Notes: generated by a model not told the origin, from the letters alone. A DNA stretch of 64,000 nucleotides from Bacteroidia bacterium (GCA_026391475.1 JAPLED010000129.1:95902-159901), one strand, 5' to 3'. Positions 474-63,281 are shown, numbered from the stretch's first letter. Program-made: numbers and translations.

Positions 474-478
474 ATTAA

Positions 479-541
479 GGCAAAAGTAAAAAGGCAAAAG
501 GCAAAAGTGAAAAATAAAAAGTGAAAAGACAAAAGTAAGGA
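479..541. repeat. array of nine contiguous 7-nt units, pattern GNNAAAA
   Basis: Read directly: ggcaaaa gtaaaaa ggcaaaa ggcaaaa gtgaaaa ataaaaa gtgaaaa gacaaaa gtaagga. Confidence 0.85.
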
Positions 542-557
542 CAATCAATAAGAAAAG

Positions 558-660
558 CCCCAGAGGGGTGAAATATTTGTAGAAAAGGGATCCCTATCAA
601 TTTTTGCGCCGGAGCAGAGAACCTGAATATGGGAAGTGTTAGATCCCGGCGCAATACGAT
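558..660. repeat. GC-rich hairpin-rich intergenic insert (possible miniature non-autonomous element)
   Basis: 9-bp stem ttgcgccgg (604-612) / ccggcgcaa (646-654), GGGATCCC palindrome (587-594), cccc-aga-gggg hairpin (558-568). Flanked by two copies of the heptad array plus gene-start sequence. Confidence 0.5.
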
Positions 661-664
661 AAAA

Positions 665-692
665 GGCAAAAGTAAAAAGGTAAAAGTAATAA
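665..692. repeat. second, shorter GNNAAAA heptad array abutting the start codon at 694
   Basis: ggcaaaa gtaaaaa ggtaaaa gtaataa. Direct copy of the beginning of the 479-541 array. Confidence 0.8.
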
Positions 693-693
693 G

Positions 694-1778
694 ATGAGGA
701 CAATATTATACCTGATAAGAAAAGAATTTATTCAGATATTCCGGAATAAATTTATTTCAAAAGCAATTTTTGCTGTCCCGATTGTTCAGATGCTGATACT
801 GGTCCCGGCAATAACGATAGAGATATGACCTCTGAATCGAGAGGGCTGATAAGCAAGCTTGAAGGTTCTACATTTTTCAAAATATCTTTTTCGACATTTT
901 CCGAAGATGATGCAAACAACCTGCTTCATCGCAATAAATGCAGTGTAATACTTCAGATTCCGTCAGGCTTTGGTAAGGATATCGGAAACGGGAAGCCCGG
1001 TAAACTTCTGGCTACAATTGATGCAATAAACGCTTCAACTGCGCAGCTTTCATGGGCTTATCTCAATGGAGTTATACGCGATTACAATATGGATCTTATC
1101 ACTGAAAACATCAGCACTAATCCTTTGGTTCCTGTTCCGCAGATTCAGATCACCAACAGATACTGGTATAATGAGTTGCTAAACTATAAATATTACATGC
1201 TTCCGGGTATACTTGTGATACTTGTTACAGCGATAGGGTTCCTGCTTGCAGGATTAAATATGGTCAGAGAAAAGGAGATAGGGACTATTGAGCAGATAAA
1301 CGTTACCCCGGTCAGAAAATATCATTTCATAATTGCCAAGATGGTACCGTTTCTGTTAATCGGACTGATAGATCTTGCCATTGGGTTAGTGATCGGCAAA
1401 CTGGCTTTTAACATCCCTTTTGAAGGAAGTATCTTACTTATGTTTTTTGGTGCATCACTTTTTCTGATCGCCGTACTCGGATTGGCTCTTTTCATTTCAA
1501 CATTTTCAGGAACACAGCAGCAATACATGTTTATCGCTTTCTTCTGCATGATAATCTTTATCCTGATGAGCGGAATCTTCACCCCTTATGAGAGTATGCC
1601 AGTGTGGGCCCAGGACTTCAACCTGATCAATCCTGTTGCCTACCTGATGCGGATAAACAGGATGGTAATGCTGAAAGGATCTACAATTCATGATATCAGC
1701 AGGGAGCTGTATTCTCTGGCAGTAATTGCAATTTGTTTTTCAGCACTTGCAGTAAGACGTTACCGGAAAACAGCTTAA
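694..1778 (+). pseudogene. ABC-2 type transporter permease, reading frame broken after codon 44
   Basis: ATG at 694 encodes MRTILYLIRKEFIQIFRNKF...PAITIEI, then TGA at 826-828. The rest of the protein (ORF 825..1778, ...DRDMTSESRGLISKLEGS...) is in another frame. The two frames overlap on the same nucleotides (gatagagat, 816-824). Confidence 0.7.
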
Positions 1779-18566: not shown

Positions 18567-19331
18567 CTAAATAGCCCTGAAAAAATTGTAATTCAGGTTT
18601 TCCAGTTCTGCCATTTTTGGATAGGGATAATAAGCGATTTCATCTTTTGCTCCCACATAGAATCCGGTGTCAATTGTCCTGTAAAGAAGCTCTCCGGAGA
18701 ATATTCGATGAACTGTTTTCATATGTTTTTCATATTCACCTTTAAGTATCTCAAGGCAGTCTCTCAAATGCCCGATATTGGGATAAGGAAGGTGTTCAGC
18801 AGAACCCGAAAGCGGATTAGTTGCCAATTCACCAAGTTTTAATTCAACAAAGAAAAGTTTGGGAAGAACAATCGGGATTGATCCATCGGTAAGTCTTTTA
18901 AGAAATAATGAAGGAGCAAGGTCACTAGCTACAAGTGGAGTTACCGGGCATAATTCCTGGTACAGATGAAGAGCATTTTTCGGTTCCCCTGTCTTGTCAT
19001 AGACTGCTTTTTTTAATTCAAGAAGGCAACCATGATCAGTAGTGAGATACAGACTTTTAATTGCTGCCACAGGTACAGTTTCCAGCACTTTGTAGACGGA
19101 AAGATAGACAGAGCTTTTCGGGCTGCCATCTGGTTTTGCTACACACCGTTTATTAAGGCTGTCAATGTCTATTAATTTTTCAATCTTACCCAGGTCAACT
19201 TCGAAGAAAATTGCCTGGCTCTTGTTCCGTTTTTTGGTGCCTGTTGACAGATAGAGGCCAAATCCCTCAGGAGGAAGCATTGAAGCTACAAGTGCTTCAG
19301 GATTGCAGGTTAAATAAATGTACTTGCTCAT
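18567..19331 (-). CDS. hypothetical cytoplasmic protein, no family recognised
   Basis: 254-aa ORF with non-repetitive, protein-like composition. No signal peptide or TM segment. Monocistronic between AT-rich spacers. Confidence 0.6.
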   Translation of the reverse strand: MSKYIYLTCNPEALVASMLPPEGFGLYLSTGTKKRNKSQAIFFEVDLGKIEKLIDIDSLNKRCVAKPDGSPKSSVYLSVYKVLETVPVAAIKSLYLTTDHGCLLELKKAVYDKTGEPKNALHLYQELCPVTPLVASDLAPSLFLKRLTDGSIPIVLPKLFFVELKLGELATNPLSGSAEHLPYPNIGHLRDCLEILKGEYEKHMKTVHRIFSGELLYRTIDTGFYVGAKDEIAYYPYPKMAELENLNYNFFRAI

Positions 19332-19505
19332 AGCTTTTCTTATTAATTAAAAGAAGAATGTTTTACTTACAAATTATTCAACAGAAAGATTAAAGTCTAA
19401 CTAATATCAAATTTACGCTAGTTTTTACAATTGTGAAAATGAAATTTTGCTTTTCATTCTTTATTTACTTGTACAGATTTTTACATTTTTCCCCTTTACA
19501 TTTAT

Positions 19506-19513
19506 TACTTTTG
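19506..19513 (+). promoter_or_regulatory. TAnnTTTG -7 box, candidate promoter of the aminotransferase gene
   Basis: tacttttg. Would give a ~150-nt leader containing the heptad hairpin. Confidence 0.35.
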
Positions 19514-19565
19514 TCCAAAATAAGAATTTAGCAGTTTGCAACTAAACAGTATTAATGGTATCAGA

Positions 19566-19628
19566 GTCGGAAGTCAGAAGACAGAAGCCAGAAGACAAAA
19601 TCTTCGGTCTTCCGACTTCGGTCTTCCA
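19566..19628 (+). repeat. 7-nt-periodic inverted repeat (GAAG-NNN x5 / CTTC-NNN x4) forming a long interrupted hairpin
   Basis: gtcggaa gtcagaa gacagaa gccagaa gacaaaa | tcttcgg tcttccg acttcgg tcttcca. By hand, 20 of 28 arm positions pair, in 4-bp GAAG/CTTC blocks. Confidence 0.8.
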
Positions 19629-19669
19629 ACTGATTAATTACAGAAGTATTTATAAATATAAAAATAATC

Positions 19670-20905
19670 ATGGTTAATTTTTTTGATGACAAAATATCAG
19701 AAAGGCTTGGCGGTGTCAACTTTGGAAAATCAGCAACGATATACAAATTTGAGCTTATTAAAAGAGCAAAAGCAGCGGCAAAAAAAGCACACCCCGAATC
19801 AGGCTTAATTGACATGGGGGTTGGAGAGCCAGATTGGCCCGCCGATCATCTGGTAGTAAAAGTTTTATCAGAAGAAGCCGGAAAACCTGAAAACAGATGG
19901 TATGCAGATAACGGAATTCCTGAATTTCAGGAAGCCGCAGCTCGTTACCTTGAAAAGGTATATGGGCTTTCAGGTTTAATACCGTCAGAACATATTATTC
20001 ATGGTATAGGATCAAAACCGGTACTTGCAATGCTTCCAATATGTTTTATTAATCCCGGTGATATTTTACTTACGACAGTTCCTGGTTACCCGGTCACAGC
20101 AACTTATACAAAATATCTTGGCGGCGAAGTATTCAACCTGCCATTACTGGAATTAAACTCATTTTTGCCAGACTTAAGCACAATACCTCAACCAATTTTA
20201 AAAAGAGCTAAGCTGCTATATCTGAATTATCCAAATAATCCAACAGGTGCTGTGGCAACTATTGAATTCTTTACGCAAGTAGTTGATTTTGCTAAGAAGA
20301 ACAATATTATCGTCATTCATGATGCTCCTTACAGTGCATTAACATACGATGGATACAAACCCCTTAGTTTTCTTTCTATTAAAGGAGCAATGGATGTTGG
20401 AATAGAAGTCCATTCATTATCAAAGGCTTTTAATATGACGGGATGGAGAATAGGTTTTGTTTGTGGAAACAGTAAAGCGATAAAAGCTTATGCAACTGTA
20501 AAAGATAATACGGATTCAGGGCAGTTCAGAGCAATTCAAAAGGCAGCTATTCAGGCATTAAGGCATACGGAAATAACAGATAAAACGATAATAAAATACT
20601 CAAGAAGGTTCGATCTGCTGGTAGATGCTTTAAATGATTTAGGATTTGACGCTAAAAAGCCGAAAGGATCATTTTACTGTTATGTAAAAGCTCCTATCGG
20701 TACGGAAAGTGGTAAAGTTTTTAATTCAGCGACTGAATTTTCCGAATTTCTTATACATGAATCATTAATATCTACTGTTCCCTGGGACGACGCCGGGAAA
20801 TTTATCCGATTCTCAGTAACCTTTGAGGCAGATTCATTTCAAAAAGAAATAGAAGTTATTAATGAAATGAAAGAGAGGATGAAAATATTAAAATTAAAAT
20901 TCTGA
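19670..20905 (+). CDS. class I/II PLP-dependent aminotransferase (LL-diaminopimelate aminotransferase-like)
   Basis: 411 aa. NYPNNPTG and PLP-lysine motif SLSKAFNMTGWRIG. Confidence 0.7.
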   Translation: MVNFFDDKISERLGGVNFGKSATIYKFELIKRAKAAAKKAHPESGLIDMGVGEPDWPADHLVVKVLSEEAGKPENRWYADNGIPEFQEAAARYLEKVYGLSGLIPSEHIIHGIGSKPVLAMLPICFINPGDILLTTVPGYPVTATYTKYLGGEVFNLPLLELNSFLPDLSTIPQPILKRAKLLYLNYPNNPTGAVATIEFFTQVVDFAKKNNIIVIHDAPYSALTYDGYKPLSFLSIKGAMDVGIEVHSLSKAFNMTGWRIGFVCGNSKAIKAYATVKDNTDSGQFRAIQKAAIQALRHTEITDKTIIKYSRRFDLLVDALNDLGFDAKKPKGSFYCYVKAPIGTESGKVFNSATEFSEFLIHESLISTVPWDDAGKFIRFSVTFEADSFQKEIEVINEMKERMKILKLKF

Positions 20906-42414: not shown

Positions 42415-43014
42415 ATGCTCAAATCATTCCTGTATCACAATCTTACTGAAGCCGGCTGTGATGAAGCAGGAAGGGGATGCCTTGCAGGACCTGTAGTAGC
42501 TGCAGCGGTTATACTTCCAAAGAATTTTAAACATCCTGTACTTAACGATTCAAAAAAACTTACACCAAAACAAAGAGCTCTTTTGAAGGATGAGATCATA
42601 AATTCAGCTATTGCATGGAAGGTGGCATTCGTTGATAATAATGAAATTGATGAAATGAATATACTCAGAGCTTCAATAAAAGCGATGCACATCGCTATTG
42701 AAGCTCTGGAAACAGAACCACAGTTTCTGCTTATCGACGGGAATAGATTCTACCCATATAAAACCATTAAACATAAGACAATTATCAAGGGCGACGGAAT
42801 ATTTTTCTCAATAGCTGCAGCTTCAGTTCTGGCAAAAACATTCCGCGATGAGTTCATGGAAAAAATTCATAATGAGTTTCCTGAATATGGATGGAATAAG
42901 AATAAAGGATATCCAACCTCCTTCCACAGAGCGGCAATATTAAAACATGGAATTACTCCCTACCACAGAAAATTTTTCAATCTTTTCGATACCCAGATGA
43001 AATTTGAATTTTGA
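42415..43014 (+). CDS. rnhB: ribonuclease HII
   Basis: 199 aa. AGCDEAGRGCLAGPVV motif. Confidence 0.9.
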   Translation: MLKSFLYHNLTEAGCDEAGRGCLAGPVVAAAVILPKNFKHPVLNDSKKLTPKQRALLKDEIINSAIAWKVAFVDNNEIDEMNILRASIKAMHIAIEALETEPQFLLIDGNRFYPYKTIKHKTIIKGDGIFFSIAAASVLAKTFRDEFMEKIHNEFPEYGWNKNKGYPTSFHRAAILKHGITPYHRKFFNLFDTQMKFEF

Positions 43015-43039
43015 ATATTTCATTCTGAATTATTACAGT

Positions 43040-61312: not shown

Positions 61313-63016
61313 ATGAGTGACGATAACATGAGGAAAAAAGAAGAATCAAAACCCTCAATAAGTTTCATTGAACAGTTTATTGCCGAAGATTTAAAAGATG
61401 GTAAGAATGGGGGAAAGGTAATAACACGTTTCCCCCCGGAACCCAATGGTTATCTGCATATCGGTCATGCAAAAGCTATCTGCCTCGATTTTGGCATGGC
61501 AAAGAAATATGGTGGAAAATGTAATCTTCGCTTTGACGATACCAACCCTGTTAAGGAGGAGGTTGAATATATCGACTCAATAAAAGAGGATATTCATTGG
61601 CTGGGATTCGACTGGGAAGAGAGGGAATTTTATGCCTCTGACTATTTTGGTAAACTGTACAATTTTGCCACCGATCTTATAAAAAGAGACCTCGCTTATG
61701 TTGATGATCAGCCTGCCGACCTGATATCTTCTCAGAAAGGAACGCCTTCCCAACCAGGAACAGAAAGCCCATTCCGCAAACGTCAGATTAACGAAAATCT
61801 TGACCTCTTCGAAAGAATGAATAAAGGAGAATTTGATGAAGGAAGACGTGTGCTGAGGGCTAAAATTGATATGCCTTCTCCCAACATGCATTTGCGCGAT
61901 CCGATCATTTACAGAATAATAAAGTCGCCTCATCACCGGACAGGTAGCAAATGGATGGTATATCCGATGTACGATTTTGCACACGGGCAGAGCGATTATT
62001 TTGAAGGAATAACTCACTCACTTTGTACTCTCGAGTTTGAAGTGCATCGTCCTCTGTACGATTGGTTTATTGAACAATTGAAAACAGATGATTACAGACC
62101 CCGACAGATCGAATTTAACCGACTAAATCTTACCTATACAATGATGAGTAAGAGGAAGTTGCTCGAATTGGTACAGGAGGGGAAAGTAAAAGGATGGGAT
62201 GATCCGAGGATGCCTACACTCTGTGGCCTCAGGAGAAGAGGATACACACCTGAGTCAATAAAAAGATTTATTGATCTTATCGGGTACACTAAAGTCGAAG
62301 CTACAAACGATGTTTCACTTCTTGAACATGCCATTCGTGAAGATCTTAATTTAAGAACCCCAAGGGTCTTTGGTGTATTAAACCCACTGAAAGTCATTAT
62401 AAAAAACTATCCTGAAGGCCATGTTGAGAATGTTGAGCTTATCAATAACCCTGAAGATGAAAGTATGGGCAAAAGGTTTGTTCCATTCAGCCGCGAAGTT
62501 TACATTGAGCAGGATGATTTTATGGAGACACCTCCGAATAAGTTTTTCCGACTGGCACCCGGTATGGAAGTTCGCCTGAAAGGCGCATATATCATTAAAT
62601 GTGACGGCTTTAAGAAGAATGAAAAGACCGGTGCAATCGAAGAGGTTTATTGCACCTACGATGCAAATACCAGAAGTGGCGGAAACACATCAGTTAAAAA
62701 AGTTAAAGGGACACTTCACTGGGTGTCGGCACAGCATGCTATTGATGCAGAAGTAAGGCTGTACGACAGGTTGTTCAATCATGAAGATCCGGCCGGACAG
62801 AAAGATGATGATTACCGGAAATTTCTGAATTCCGATTCATTAATAATACTTACAGGATGCAAGGTTGAACCTTCATTAAGATCAGCCAGACCACTTGAAA
62901 AATTTCAATTTCAGCGATTGGGTTATTTTTGCGTAGATTATGATTCAACATCGCTGAAGCCTGTATTTAACAGGACTGTTCAGCTAAAAGACTCATGGGT
63001 AAAGGTTAACAAGTGA
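61313..63016 (+). CDS. glnS: glutamine--tRNA ligase
   Basis: 567 aa. HIGH motif ([12 protein letters not shown]), MSK motif (TMMSKRK), C-terminal anticodon-binding beta-barrels. Confidence 0.92.
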
Positions 63017-63108
63017 TACTGGGTACTTGGTTCTGGATTCTGGTTCCTTGGTTGTTGGTCGATGTTTTCTGGAATTAAAAAATATAACCAGCACCCAGTA
63101 CCCGGCAC
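63017..63108 (+). repeat. 7-nt-periodic repeat (TNCTGG-type x8) with inverted CCAGNAC-type units
   Basis: tactggg tacttgg ttctgga ttctggt tccttgg ttgttgg tcgatgt tttctgg - aattaaaaaatataa - ccagcac ccagtac ccggcac. Confidence 0.8.
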
Positions 63109-63185
63109 CACATATAAAAGAAAAGGGGTTCACGGGTATTATGCAACGAAAATAAACGGGAAACCCATTATTTCAGGATTTTATA

Positions 63186-63193
63186 TATATTTG
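63186..63193 (+). promoter_or_regulatory. TAnnTTTG -7 box upstream of tRNA-Gln
   Basis: tatatttg, 13 nt upstream of the tRNA 5' end. Confidence 0.5.
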
Positions 63194-63205
63194 CAACCTC
63201 AAATT

Positions 63206-63281
63206 TGTCCCGTGGTGTAATTGGCAACACGTCTGATTCTGGATCAGAAGAGTTCAGGTTCGAAACCTGACGGGACAACCA
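63206..63281 (+). tRNA. tRNA-Gln (CTG), CCA encoded
   Basis: 76-nt cloverleaf folded by hand. U1-A72 acceptor pair (tgtcccg/cgggaca), anticodon loop ttCTGga, T-arm tcagg-ttcgaaa-cctga. Confidence 0.88.

Follow-up and report, generated by a model that had tools for sequence, protein, structure and literature searches.

The hairpin at 19566-19628 of the 64-kb window (by which we mean the whole 64,000-nt stretch of DNA that was analysed) probably belongs, as a copy without an ORF, to a widespread class of palindromic heptanucleotide repeats, forming a stem-loop in the dapL 5' UTR that resembles the intervening sequences (IVS) of 23S rRNA genes. In its general form, this class is built from a G-rich tandem array of 7-nt units, a loop and the inverse, C-rich array; in a cargo-bearing form, the same architecture brackets genes for PF05635 (the 23S-rRNA-intervening-sequence protein, a four-helix bundle and kin of the DGR accessory protein Avd), and at least one classical 23S rRNA IVS has a stem of this kind. 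One copy would have landed, or arisen, in the 5' UTR of dapL, downstream of a conserved promoter.

The hairpin is non-coding and lies between divergent genes at 18567-19331 (minus strand) and 19670-20905 (plus strand). The product of the latter scores 667.6 bits on NF004937, against a cut-off of 585, and the features of the locus are as follows:

19498-19516, plus strand: conserved promoter core ACATTTATTACTTTTGTCC, a block kept in all orthologous upstream regions (alignment)
19506-19513, plus strand: candidate Bacteroidetes-type -7 motif TACTTTTG, a TAnnTTTG match inside the conserved block
19560-19564, plus strand: 5' half of the outer stem, ATCAG, from RNA and DNA folds; its partner is 19630-19634
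19566-19600, plus strand: G-rich arm, five heptads (gtcggaa gtcagaa gacagaa gccagaa gacaaaa), read directly
19601-19628, plus strand: C-rich arm, four inverse heptads (tcttcgg tcttccg acttcgg tcttcca), read directly
19630-19634, plus strand: 3' half of the outer stem, CTGAT, from RNA and DNA folds
19635-19669, plus strand: A/U-rich spacer from hairpin to start codon, unpaired in the fold, its last bases aligning with orthologs
19670-20905, plus strand: LL-diaminopimelate aminotransferase gene dapL (NCBIfam NF004937, Pfam Aminotran_1_2)

TAnnTTTG is the -7 motif of Bacteroidetes-type promoters, and we infer the start of dapL transcription from this candidate match. An earlier, sequence-only reading had placed the hairpin between a candidate TAnnTTTG promoter and the ATG of dapL at 19670, and this placement stands as it was given, with the motif falling in a block that orthologs conserve.

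Direct reading and Tandem Repeats Finder agree on the five GAAG-type heptads followed by four inverse heptads that had been noticed at 19566-19628: The G-rich arm was reported with period 7 and 5.0 copies of the consensus TCAGAAG, and the C-rich arm with period 7 and 3.7 copies of TCTTCGG. With at least three tandem 7-nt units, the hairpin ranks as a heptad SSR. The unit of the left arm is G-N-C-A-G-A-A, and that of the right arm, read as its complement, is G-N-C-S-G-A-A. A scan for lag-7 periodicity found 7 to be the only enriched lag across the whole window (21 sliding-window positions with at least 22 of 28 self-matches, and none at any other lag from 3 to 15). Identical 4-mers at four successive sites of period 7 occurred at 10 positions in the window, against 0.06 in shuffles, and the corresponding counts for periods 5, 6, 8 and 9 were 0-1.

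The RNA has a minimum free energy (MFE) of -26.5 kcal/mol, compared with a shuffle mean of -17.4 (z = -3.4; 0 of 200 shuffles as stable), and folded as DNA the same sequence reaches -14.7 kcal/mol (z = -3.8). The stem comprises about 29 bp, including the outer AUCAG/CUGAU helix, and the fifth G-rich heptad (gacaaaa) makes up most of the hairpin loop, which is 5 nt long. Each GAAG pairs with a CUUC, so that the proposed GAAG:CTTC ladder is borne out, and the GAAG cores are all paired in both the MFE and centroid structures. The claim that spacers contribute only their middle base holds for most of them, in which the middle C pairs with G and a mismatch lies on either side of this single central pair, but not for the innermost spacer, which forms 2 bp and a bulge. 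This regular ladder of mismatches exists because each arm has been homogenised to its own unit variant. Inverted repeats occur in several registers, with terminal inverted repeats producing an extended stem, and the GC skews of the two arms (+0.29 and -0.33) reflect G-rich heptads on the 5' side and their inverse on the 3' side. At gathering score, Rfam has no family for the hairpin, its sole matches in the window being two tRNAs, with no rRNA; below threshold, the hairpin drew only miRNA-precursor-like hairpin matches.

The window comes from an uncultured member of the Bacteroidales/Bacteroidia, and comparisons were made with 13 orthologous loci from related Bacteroidales MAGs, whose products have 81-92% amino acid identity (the nearest at 92%). 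The block ACATTTATTACTTTTACCC, with its TAnnTTTG-type motif, is conserved in all 13, and the hairpin is absent from 12 of them (L001-L012), in which the promoter is nevertheless conserved. When the dapL hairpin is aligned with these empty orthologous sites, no target-site duplication is visible. The alignment shows the hairpin to be an insertion relative to the orthologs, apparently a recently acquired one. In the remaining locus, L033 (87% amino acid identity and syntenic), a GAAGTCC-type heptad hairpin (-39.8 kcal/mol, z = -6.5) lies upstream, not downstream, of the promoter block, and its outer stem ACTAATCAG/CTGATTAGT resembles the ATTAAT..CAG/CTGATTAAT of the window. This resemblance shows a homologous copy at another place in a relative. 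Two related genomes have, by this comparison, acquired related elements at different points of one spacer, which argues against a gene-specific regulatory role. Both the promoter and the 35 A/U-rich nt that precede the ATG are intact, consistent with an insertion that is tolerated and probably neutral.

The sequence-only reading had pointed to two further loci in the window with the same 7-nt architecture and different units. Both are real, and only one of them, between glnS and a tRNA gene, has inverted arms; the other, at 476-693, consists of direct arrays. The features at the first are:

63014-63016: stop codon of glnS, directly after which the hairpin begins
63017-63112, plus strand: second inverted heptad hairpin, with arms TACTGGG/TACTTGG... 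and AACCAGC/ACCCAGT... and a loop of about 27 nt
63206-63281: tRNA-Gln (CTG), about 95 nt downstream of the hairpin

In relatives, this sister hairpin also occurs with a PF05635 gene in its loop. The genome with the closest GlnRS (L321, 95% identical) has the same bare hairpin as the window (-43.2 kcal/mol, z = -4.2), and the hairpins of both fold well. At 94% and 90% identity (L322 and L363), there is nothing between the glnS stop codon and the tRNA promoter. The arms of the window recur in L323/L324 (89%) and in L345, where they are separated by a gene for a PF05635 protein of 121 aa (23S_rRNA_IVP; TIGR02436, 'four helix bundle protein'), and L365 (89%) has, at the same spot, a hairpin of a different unit (GAGGTGA). 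The glnS/tRNA-Gln spacer is a hot spot for heptad hairpins of differing unit types. The direct succession of glutaminyl-tRNA synthetase and tRNA-Gln (61313-63281 in the window) is itself kept in several relatives, and in L363 a heptad-type hairpin (GAGCGGG AGTGAGA GCAAGAG ... / CTCGCTC ACACACT ...) sits just 3' of tRNA-Gln, at about 2660-2740.

The second locus is of another kind, and its two arrays are:

476-536, plus strand: left AAAAGGC/AAAAGTA heptad array of a direct pair, between two ABC-2 permease genes
661-693, plus strand: right, direct copy of the AAAAGGC/AAAAGTA array, adjoining the start of the next permease gene

These direct arrays flank about 120 nt holding a GCGCCGG...CCGGCGC hairpin (window 476-700), for which Rfam gave no match. 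Next to the left AAAAGGC array, on its 3' side, is AGGACAAT..ATAAGAAAAG, which partly duplicates the start of the following gene (ATGAGGACAAT...ATAAGAAAAG at 694), and the sequence suggests a local duplication with an insert. The ABC-2 permease that follows (694-1778) is present as two overlapping ORFs in different frames (694-828 and 825-1778), which may be due to a frameshift, to an error in sequencing or to a wrongly assigned start. A weak array of TGAATTT (4.9 copies, 70% matches) occurs at 42998-43031.

That PF05635 genes are bracketed by such arrays is shown by several searches. With the L323-type protein as tblastn query, PF05635 homologs were found in two of the GAAG-array contigs, L086 and L199, each lying between a GAAG-type array and its inverse; the L323 product and the L086 homolog were verified to be PF05635 proteins, the latter with a bAvd match as well, PF05635 having been recognised as Avd-like (PMC10053308). 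An HMM search added a locus whose PF05635 gene is bracketed by GAAG-type arrays (L183) and two in which arrays adjoin the gene (L100 and L135). We then drew an independent sample by protein similarity only, consisting of metagenome loci L325 and L335, seven distinct viral-contig loci (within L346-L354) and eight plasmid loci of cultured bacteria. Nearly all of the PF05635 genes sampled have a G-rich tandem array upstream and its inverse downstream, with units that vary by locus (GGTGCTG, GAGGCTT, GGAGTCT, GAGAACT, GGGAAAA and others). Lag 7 scored highest in 12 of the 13 upstream flanks, and lag-7 scores of at least 15/21 were reached upstream in 9 of 13 flanks and downstream in 9 of 12, compared with 0.2% of 1000 control windows. 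The score for inverted matches between upstream and downstream flanks exceeded the 95th percentile of controls in all 12 cases, and the polarity with the G-rich arm 5' is matched by 16 of 22 PF05635 loci and reversed in none.

Some cyanobacterial flanks (L355, L357) have 8-nt or irregular periods. The plasmid matches come mostly from Nostoc, Calothrix and relatives, which are the taxa in which STRR were first described. PF05635 is a four-helix bundle, and both solved relatives were deposited with five chains each. A type III-B CRISPR operon on a plasmid of Picosynechococcus sp. PCC 7003 (L361; NZ_CP016476.1, 126173-127278) contains, between cas10/cmr2 and cmr3, a PF05635 gene that is flanked on either side by GAGGAGATAA-type arrays. 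In two IMG/VR contigs (L346/L347, about 1000-1800), such a gene lies between GAAGTGG-type repeats, and since both flanks look like continuous coding sequence, the cassette may interrupt a protein-coding gene, which we guess to be that of a PglX-like methyltransferase. Many close PF05635 homologs are on short contigs, of about 1-2 kb; the repeat flanks may often be where assemblies break, and these cassettes are perhaps under-represented in MAGs.

The connection to rRNA comes from Azospirillum lipoferum, in which a PF05635 ORF is part of an IVS in a 23S rRNA gene (486 bits on Rfam LSU_rRNA_bacteria). The arms of this IVS, TCAGAGGACGGATGACAGAGGACGGAGGACAGAAAG and CTATCCGTCCTCTGTCTTCTGTCATCCGTCTTCTGA, are 36 nt long, 86% complementary and 397 nt apart; they (TCAGAGGACGGATGACAGAGGACGGAGGACAGAA... 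and the inverse) are made of heptads C-R-G-A-R-G-A (CRGARGA), which belong to the unit family of the dapL hairpin. The dapL hairpin is like a 23S IVS in that terminal inverted repeats create an extended stem around a loop and in its sporadic occurrence among relatives, but it differs in lying in an mRNA leader and not in a 23S rRNA helix, in having no ORF and in a stem that is much more mismatched. No PF05635 gene was detected by HMM search in its loop or anywhere else in the 64-kb window, and among Bacteroidales no GAAG-type pair carrying a PF05635 gene was found, the carriers there being TGGGTGC-type pairs. With a 5-nt loop and no PF05635 ORF, the dapL hairpin can be classed only as an ORF-less relative of the IVS-like PF05635 cassettes.

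GAAG arrays as such are widespread. The pattern GAAGNCNGAAGNCNGAAGNCNGAAG (GAAGNCN three times, then GAAG) matched at least 120 stretches in each of the metagenome and viral-contig collections. Among the matches listed, the contigs span 28-70% G+C, many arrays have an inverse array nearby, and different heptad arrays often adjoin each other. Under a relaxed definition of the core, inverted pairs in this set have the G-rich array first in 40 cases and the C-rich array first in 9, and their spacers fall into two groups, of 0-120 nt (31 pairs) and about 360-440 nt (5 pairs). Of the GAAG arrays sampled among the matches listed, about 95% have no PF05635 gene near them and many are unpaired, such that arrays could be something more general, of which PF05635 cassettes simply make use. 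Nor is PF05635 the sole cargo, given that three of the five GAAG pairs in the group with longer spacers (L282, L212 and L180) lack a recognisable PF05635 ORF in their loops.

One of these, the GAAGTCA-type inverted pair at 4179-4610 of L212, has a 380-nt loop without a PF05635 ORF, and its insert has inverted termini of its own (GGCCGCAGCGCCGGGGTCCCCGGAAC and the inverse), which indicates that loops can hold other cargo. In a Bacillota MAG (L017, 326-792), inverted GAGAATT/GAGAATG arrays lie on both sides of the second part (124 codons) of a split gene for a membrane protein that is TauE/SafE-like by eye and not PF05635. An association of arrays with tRNA genes, which the glnS-side hairpin and L118 had suggested, was rejected: Only 3 of 17 tRNAs in 1.75 Mb have an array within 200 nt, and two of these three belong to the tRNA cluster of L118 itself, where (at 1-300) the spacers flanking tRNA-Thr and tRNA-Gly are GAAGTCA/GAAGACA heptads.

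The view that periodicity, not sequence, is what is conserved is no more than half correct: Units do differ between loci, but a C-R-G-A-R-G-N unit is common to the dapL hairpin, the Geobacter 'class 3' sites, the Azospirillum 23S IVS and contigs of 28-70% G+C and so recurs across phyla. The Geobacter metallireducens sites are eight pairs of five tandem heptanucleotides with the consensus MTYCTGA, annotated as 'class 3 global regulator binding sites' (PMC2700814, Additional file 9); the pairs are on opposite strands and intergenic, e.g., between proB and proA (PMC2700814). At the level of consensus, to which this comparison is confined, their reverse complement TCAGRAK matches the dapL unit TCAGAAG, and the dapL hairpin has 5 + 4 inverted units. 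In Geobacter, the distance between paired sites is variable, and their reading as protein-binding sites is without experimental support.

Tandem heptanucleotides have a longer history, beginning with the STRR of heterocystous cyanobacteria, reportedly the subject of Mazel et al. in 1990. Later descriptions include the LSSR of Mrazek et al. 2007 (in the summary given by PMC4679880) and the TAACTGA heptanucleotide repeats (PMC4679880). Like the arrays of the window, all of these are tandem 7-nt units, intergenic, sporadic in distribution (Bacteroidetes included) and without an assigned function. They also show indels in 7-nt increments between strains, and the arrays related to ours behave similarly: At a PF05635 locus, 2 of 10 contigs from one population have 14 additional nt in one arm, and at another locus, none of 10 differ. 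Such arrays are hence shown to change length in 7/14-nt steps, and they mutate by units yet are not hypermutable. In the published descriptions surveyed, these repeats are direct arrays, in contrast to the dapL type, in which an array and its inverse form a hairpin of fixed polarity (G-rich 5') within a PF05635-linked class. The open-access literature that we searched, as far as it covers the original LSSR work through a summary, makes no mention of inverse pairing with fixed polarity, or of a link to PF05635, for heptad repeats.

These resemblances lend some appeal to the idea that the hairpin is a plain heptanucleotide microsatellite of the STRR/LSSR type, made in place by slippage and inverted duplication, with no relation to PF05635 or IVS and no function, which we nevertheless regard as unlikely. 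Heptanucleotides are reported to be the commonest class of long SSR in prokaryotes, present in cyanobacteria, Beggiatoaceae and Bacteroidetes (PMC4679880; PMC4692102), and the 14-nt variation within a population, the homogenisation of each arm to its own variant (G.CAGAA left, G.CSGAA right) and the fact that most GAAG arrays lack a PF05635 gene all favor this account. It cannot explain several of the observed patterns: Slippage alone does not produce the inverted partner array, and there is no reason under this model for the G-rich arm to be 5' in 40 of 49 pairs among the matches listed and never to be reversed around PF05635, for the L033 copy, at its different position, to have similar ends outside the repeats, or for the bracketing of PF05635 genes to be near-universal.

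In another reading, the hairpin is a MITE or REP-like element whose heptad arrays or TAATCAG/CTGATTA ends would be recognised by a transposase that is encoded elsewhere and mobilises it. This would account for the presence/absence polymorphism among relatives and for the copies with similar termini at different positions in the window and L033, and paired sites of other classes in Geobacter metallireducens do have IS elements at a fixed distance (PMC2700814). MITEs and REP/BIME sequences are, like the dapL hairpin, short, non-coding, palindromic, intergenic and polymorphic among relatives; the dapL-type hairpin departs from them in its heptad arms and in having no visible target-site duplication, no conserved family-wide sequence and no associated transposase or RAYT. 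A search of the 64-kb window returned no second copy of the dapL hairpin or its termini, and units differ between loci far beyond what the ends of one MITE family would allow. With no associated transposase, and with PF05635 as the only recurrent cargo, we consider this origin improbable.

The sequence-only reading had compared the array to those bound by HutP-like oligomeric RNA-binding proteins, and the corresponding model is a cis-regulatory dapL leader RNA, in which the GAAG cores are read by a ring-shaped or oligomeric protein or the hairpin acts as an attenuator. The hairpin does form a stable structure in a candidate 5' UTR, about 45-120 nt past the inferred start, and in Beggiatoaceae and Nostoc a role as regulator sites has been proposed for heptamer repeats close to start codons (PMC4679880; bioRxiv 10.1101/2022.06.06.494920). 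The arrays of HutP and TRAP resemble it in their short core, fixed period of about 7 nt and position in a 5' leader; their cores, however, are single-stranded and conserved with the operon, with the regulator gene alongside, whereas those of the dapL hairpin are paired and not conserved with the gene. A leader-specific element should not be absent from 12 of 13 orthologous leaders and displaced to the other side of the promoter in the thirteenth (L033), and base-paired repeat cores likewise oppose a HutP-like reading. Neither this nor an iteron-like reading is supported, with hairpins of the same kind also occurring at the 3' ends of genes, inside operons, between tRNA genes and inside 23S rRNA. 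What the sequence-only reading had named as refuting its own proposal, variation like that of neutral microsatellites, largely holds: Some relatives have the element and others do not, and within a population arrays differ in length by steps of 14 nt.

An intrinsic terminator or attenuator was also considered and rejected: There are no terminator-like sites in 19000-20000, the sequence directly 3' of the hairpin is aactgattaatt, with no U-tract, and, because the upstream gene is transcribed in the opposite direction, the hairpin cannot serve to terminate it. Taken with the lack of an Rfam family, these observations make a regulatory leader RNA very improbable. Just as hard to credit is an iteron-like or 'global regulator' array of DNA-binding sites acting on both divergent promoters, that of dapL and that of the gene upstream, as the divergent intergenic position and the Geobacter annotation of paired MTYCTGA (reverse complement TCAGRAK) as regulator sites (PMC2700814) might suggest, when that annotation is a guess made without experiments, the hairpin is not conserved in orthologs and is found on opposite sides of the promoter in the window (downstream) and in L033 (upstream), and contexts elsewhere, including the inside of rRNA, are unfit for promoter control.

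Returning to the ORF-less, IVS-like element that we favor, the GAAG-type copy in the dapL leader would derive from a cargo-bearing element, or represent an empty site for one, and would have little or no selective effect on dapL. Once transcribed, it would form an extended imperfect duplex that may be cut by RNase III in the manner of rRNA IVS stems, and such cutting would amount to processing of the dapL leader, not to regulation by a signal. In Coxiella, IVS stems that flank a PF05635-family ORF are RNase III substrates (PMC4990558), and IVS with an S23p/PF05635 ORF, known from Leptospira and Coxiella, are regarded as selfish (PMC4990558). By analogy, the dapL hairpin may be a target of RNase III, and its many stem mismatches make cleavage uncertain.

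Heptad repeats and IVS elements are each already known, and their association is apparently new, in that the open-access literature yielded neither a link between heptamer repeats and PF05635 or IVS (an earlier description elsewhere is possible) nor ORF-less copies in mRNA leaders. It is conceivable, but speculative and in our judgment rather unlikely, that inverted heptad arrays and PF05635 (Avd-like) genes constitute one undescribed selfish-element or repeat-making system, of which rRNA IVS are only the best-known landing sites. In such a system, the Avd-like protein would bind the heptad arrays or help to synthesise them, one option being a templated, telomerase-like addition of G-rich 7-nt units to both 3' ends of a break. 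This addition would explain why the G-rich strand always runs 5' to 3' towards the center, why a core is shared and why the arms are homogenised independently. ORF-less hairpins like that of dapL would be scars or non-autonomous copies.

For dapL itself, the outcome is deflationary: The hairpin is probably not a regulator of the lysine pathway, and its annotation as a leader element is unwarranted. More broadly, the excess of 7-nt tandem repeats (STRR/LSSR) and the genes for 'four helix bundle / 23S rRNA IVS protein' appear to be two faces of one thing. If this is true genome-wide, it would offer a handle on the origin and movement of IVS, on the role of the stand-alone Avd-like protein and on why the unit has seven bases, and it would flag heptad hairpins as likely sites of RNase III processing in mRNAs.
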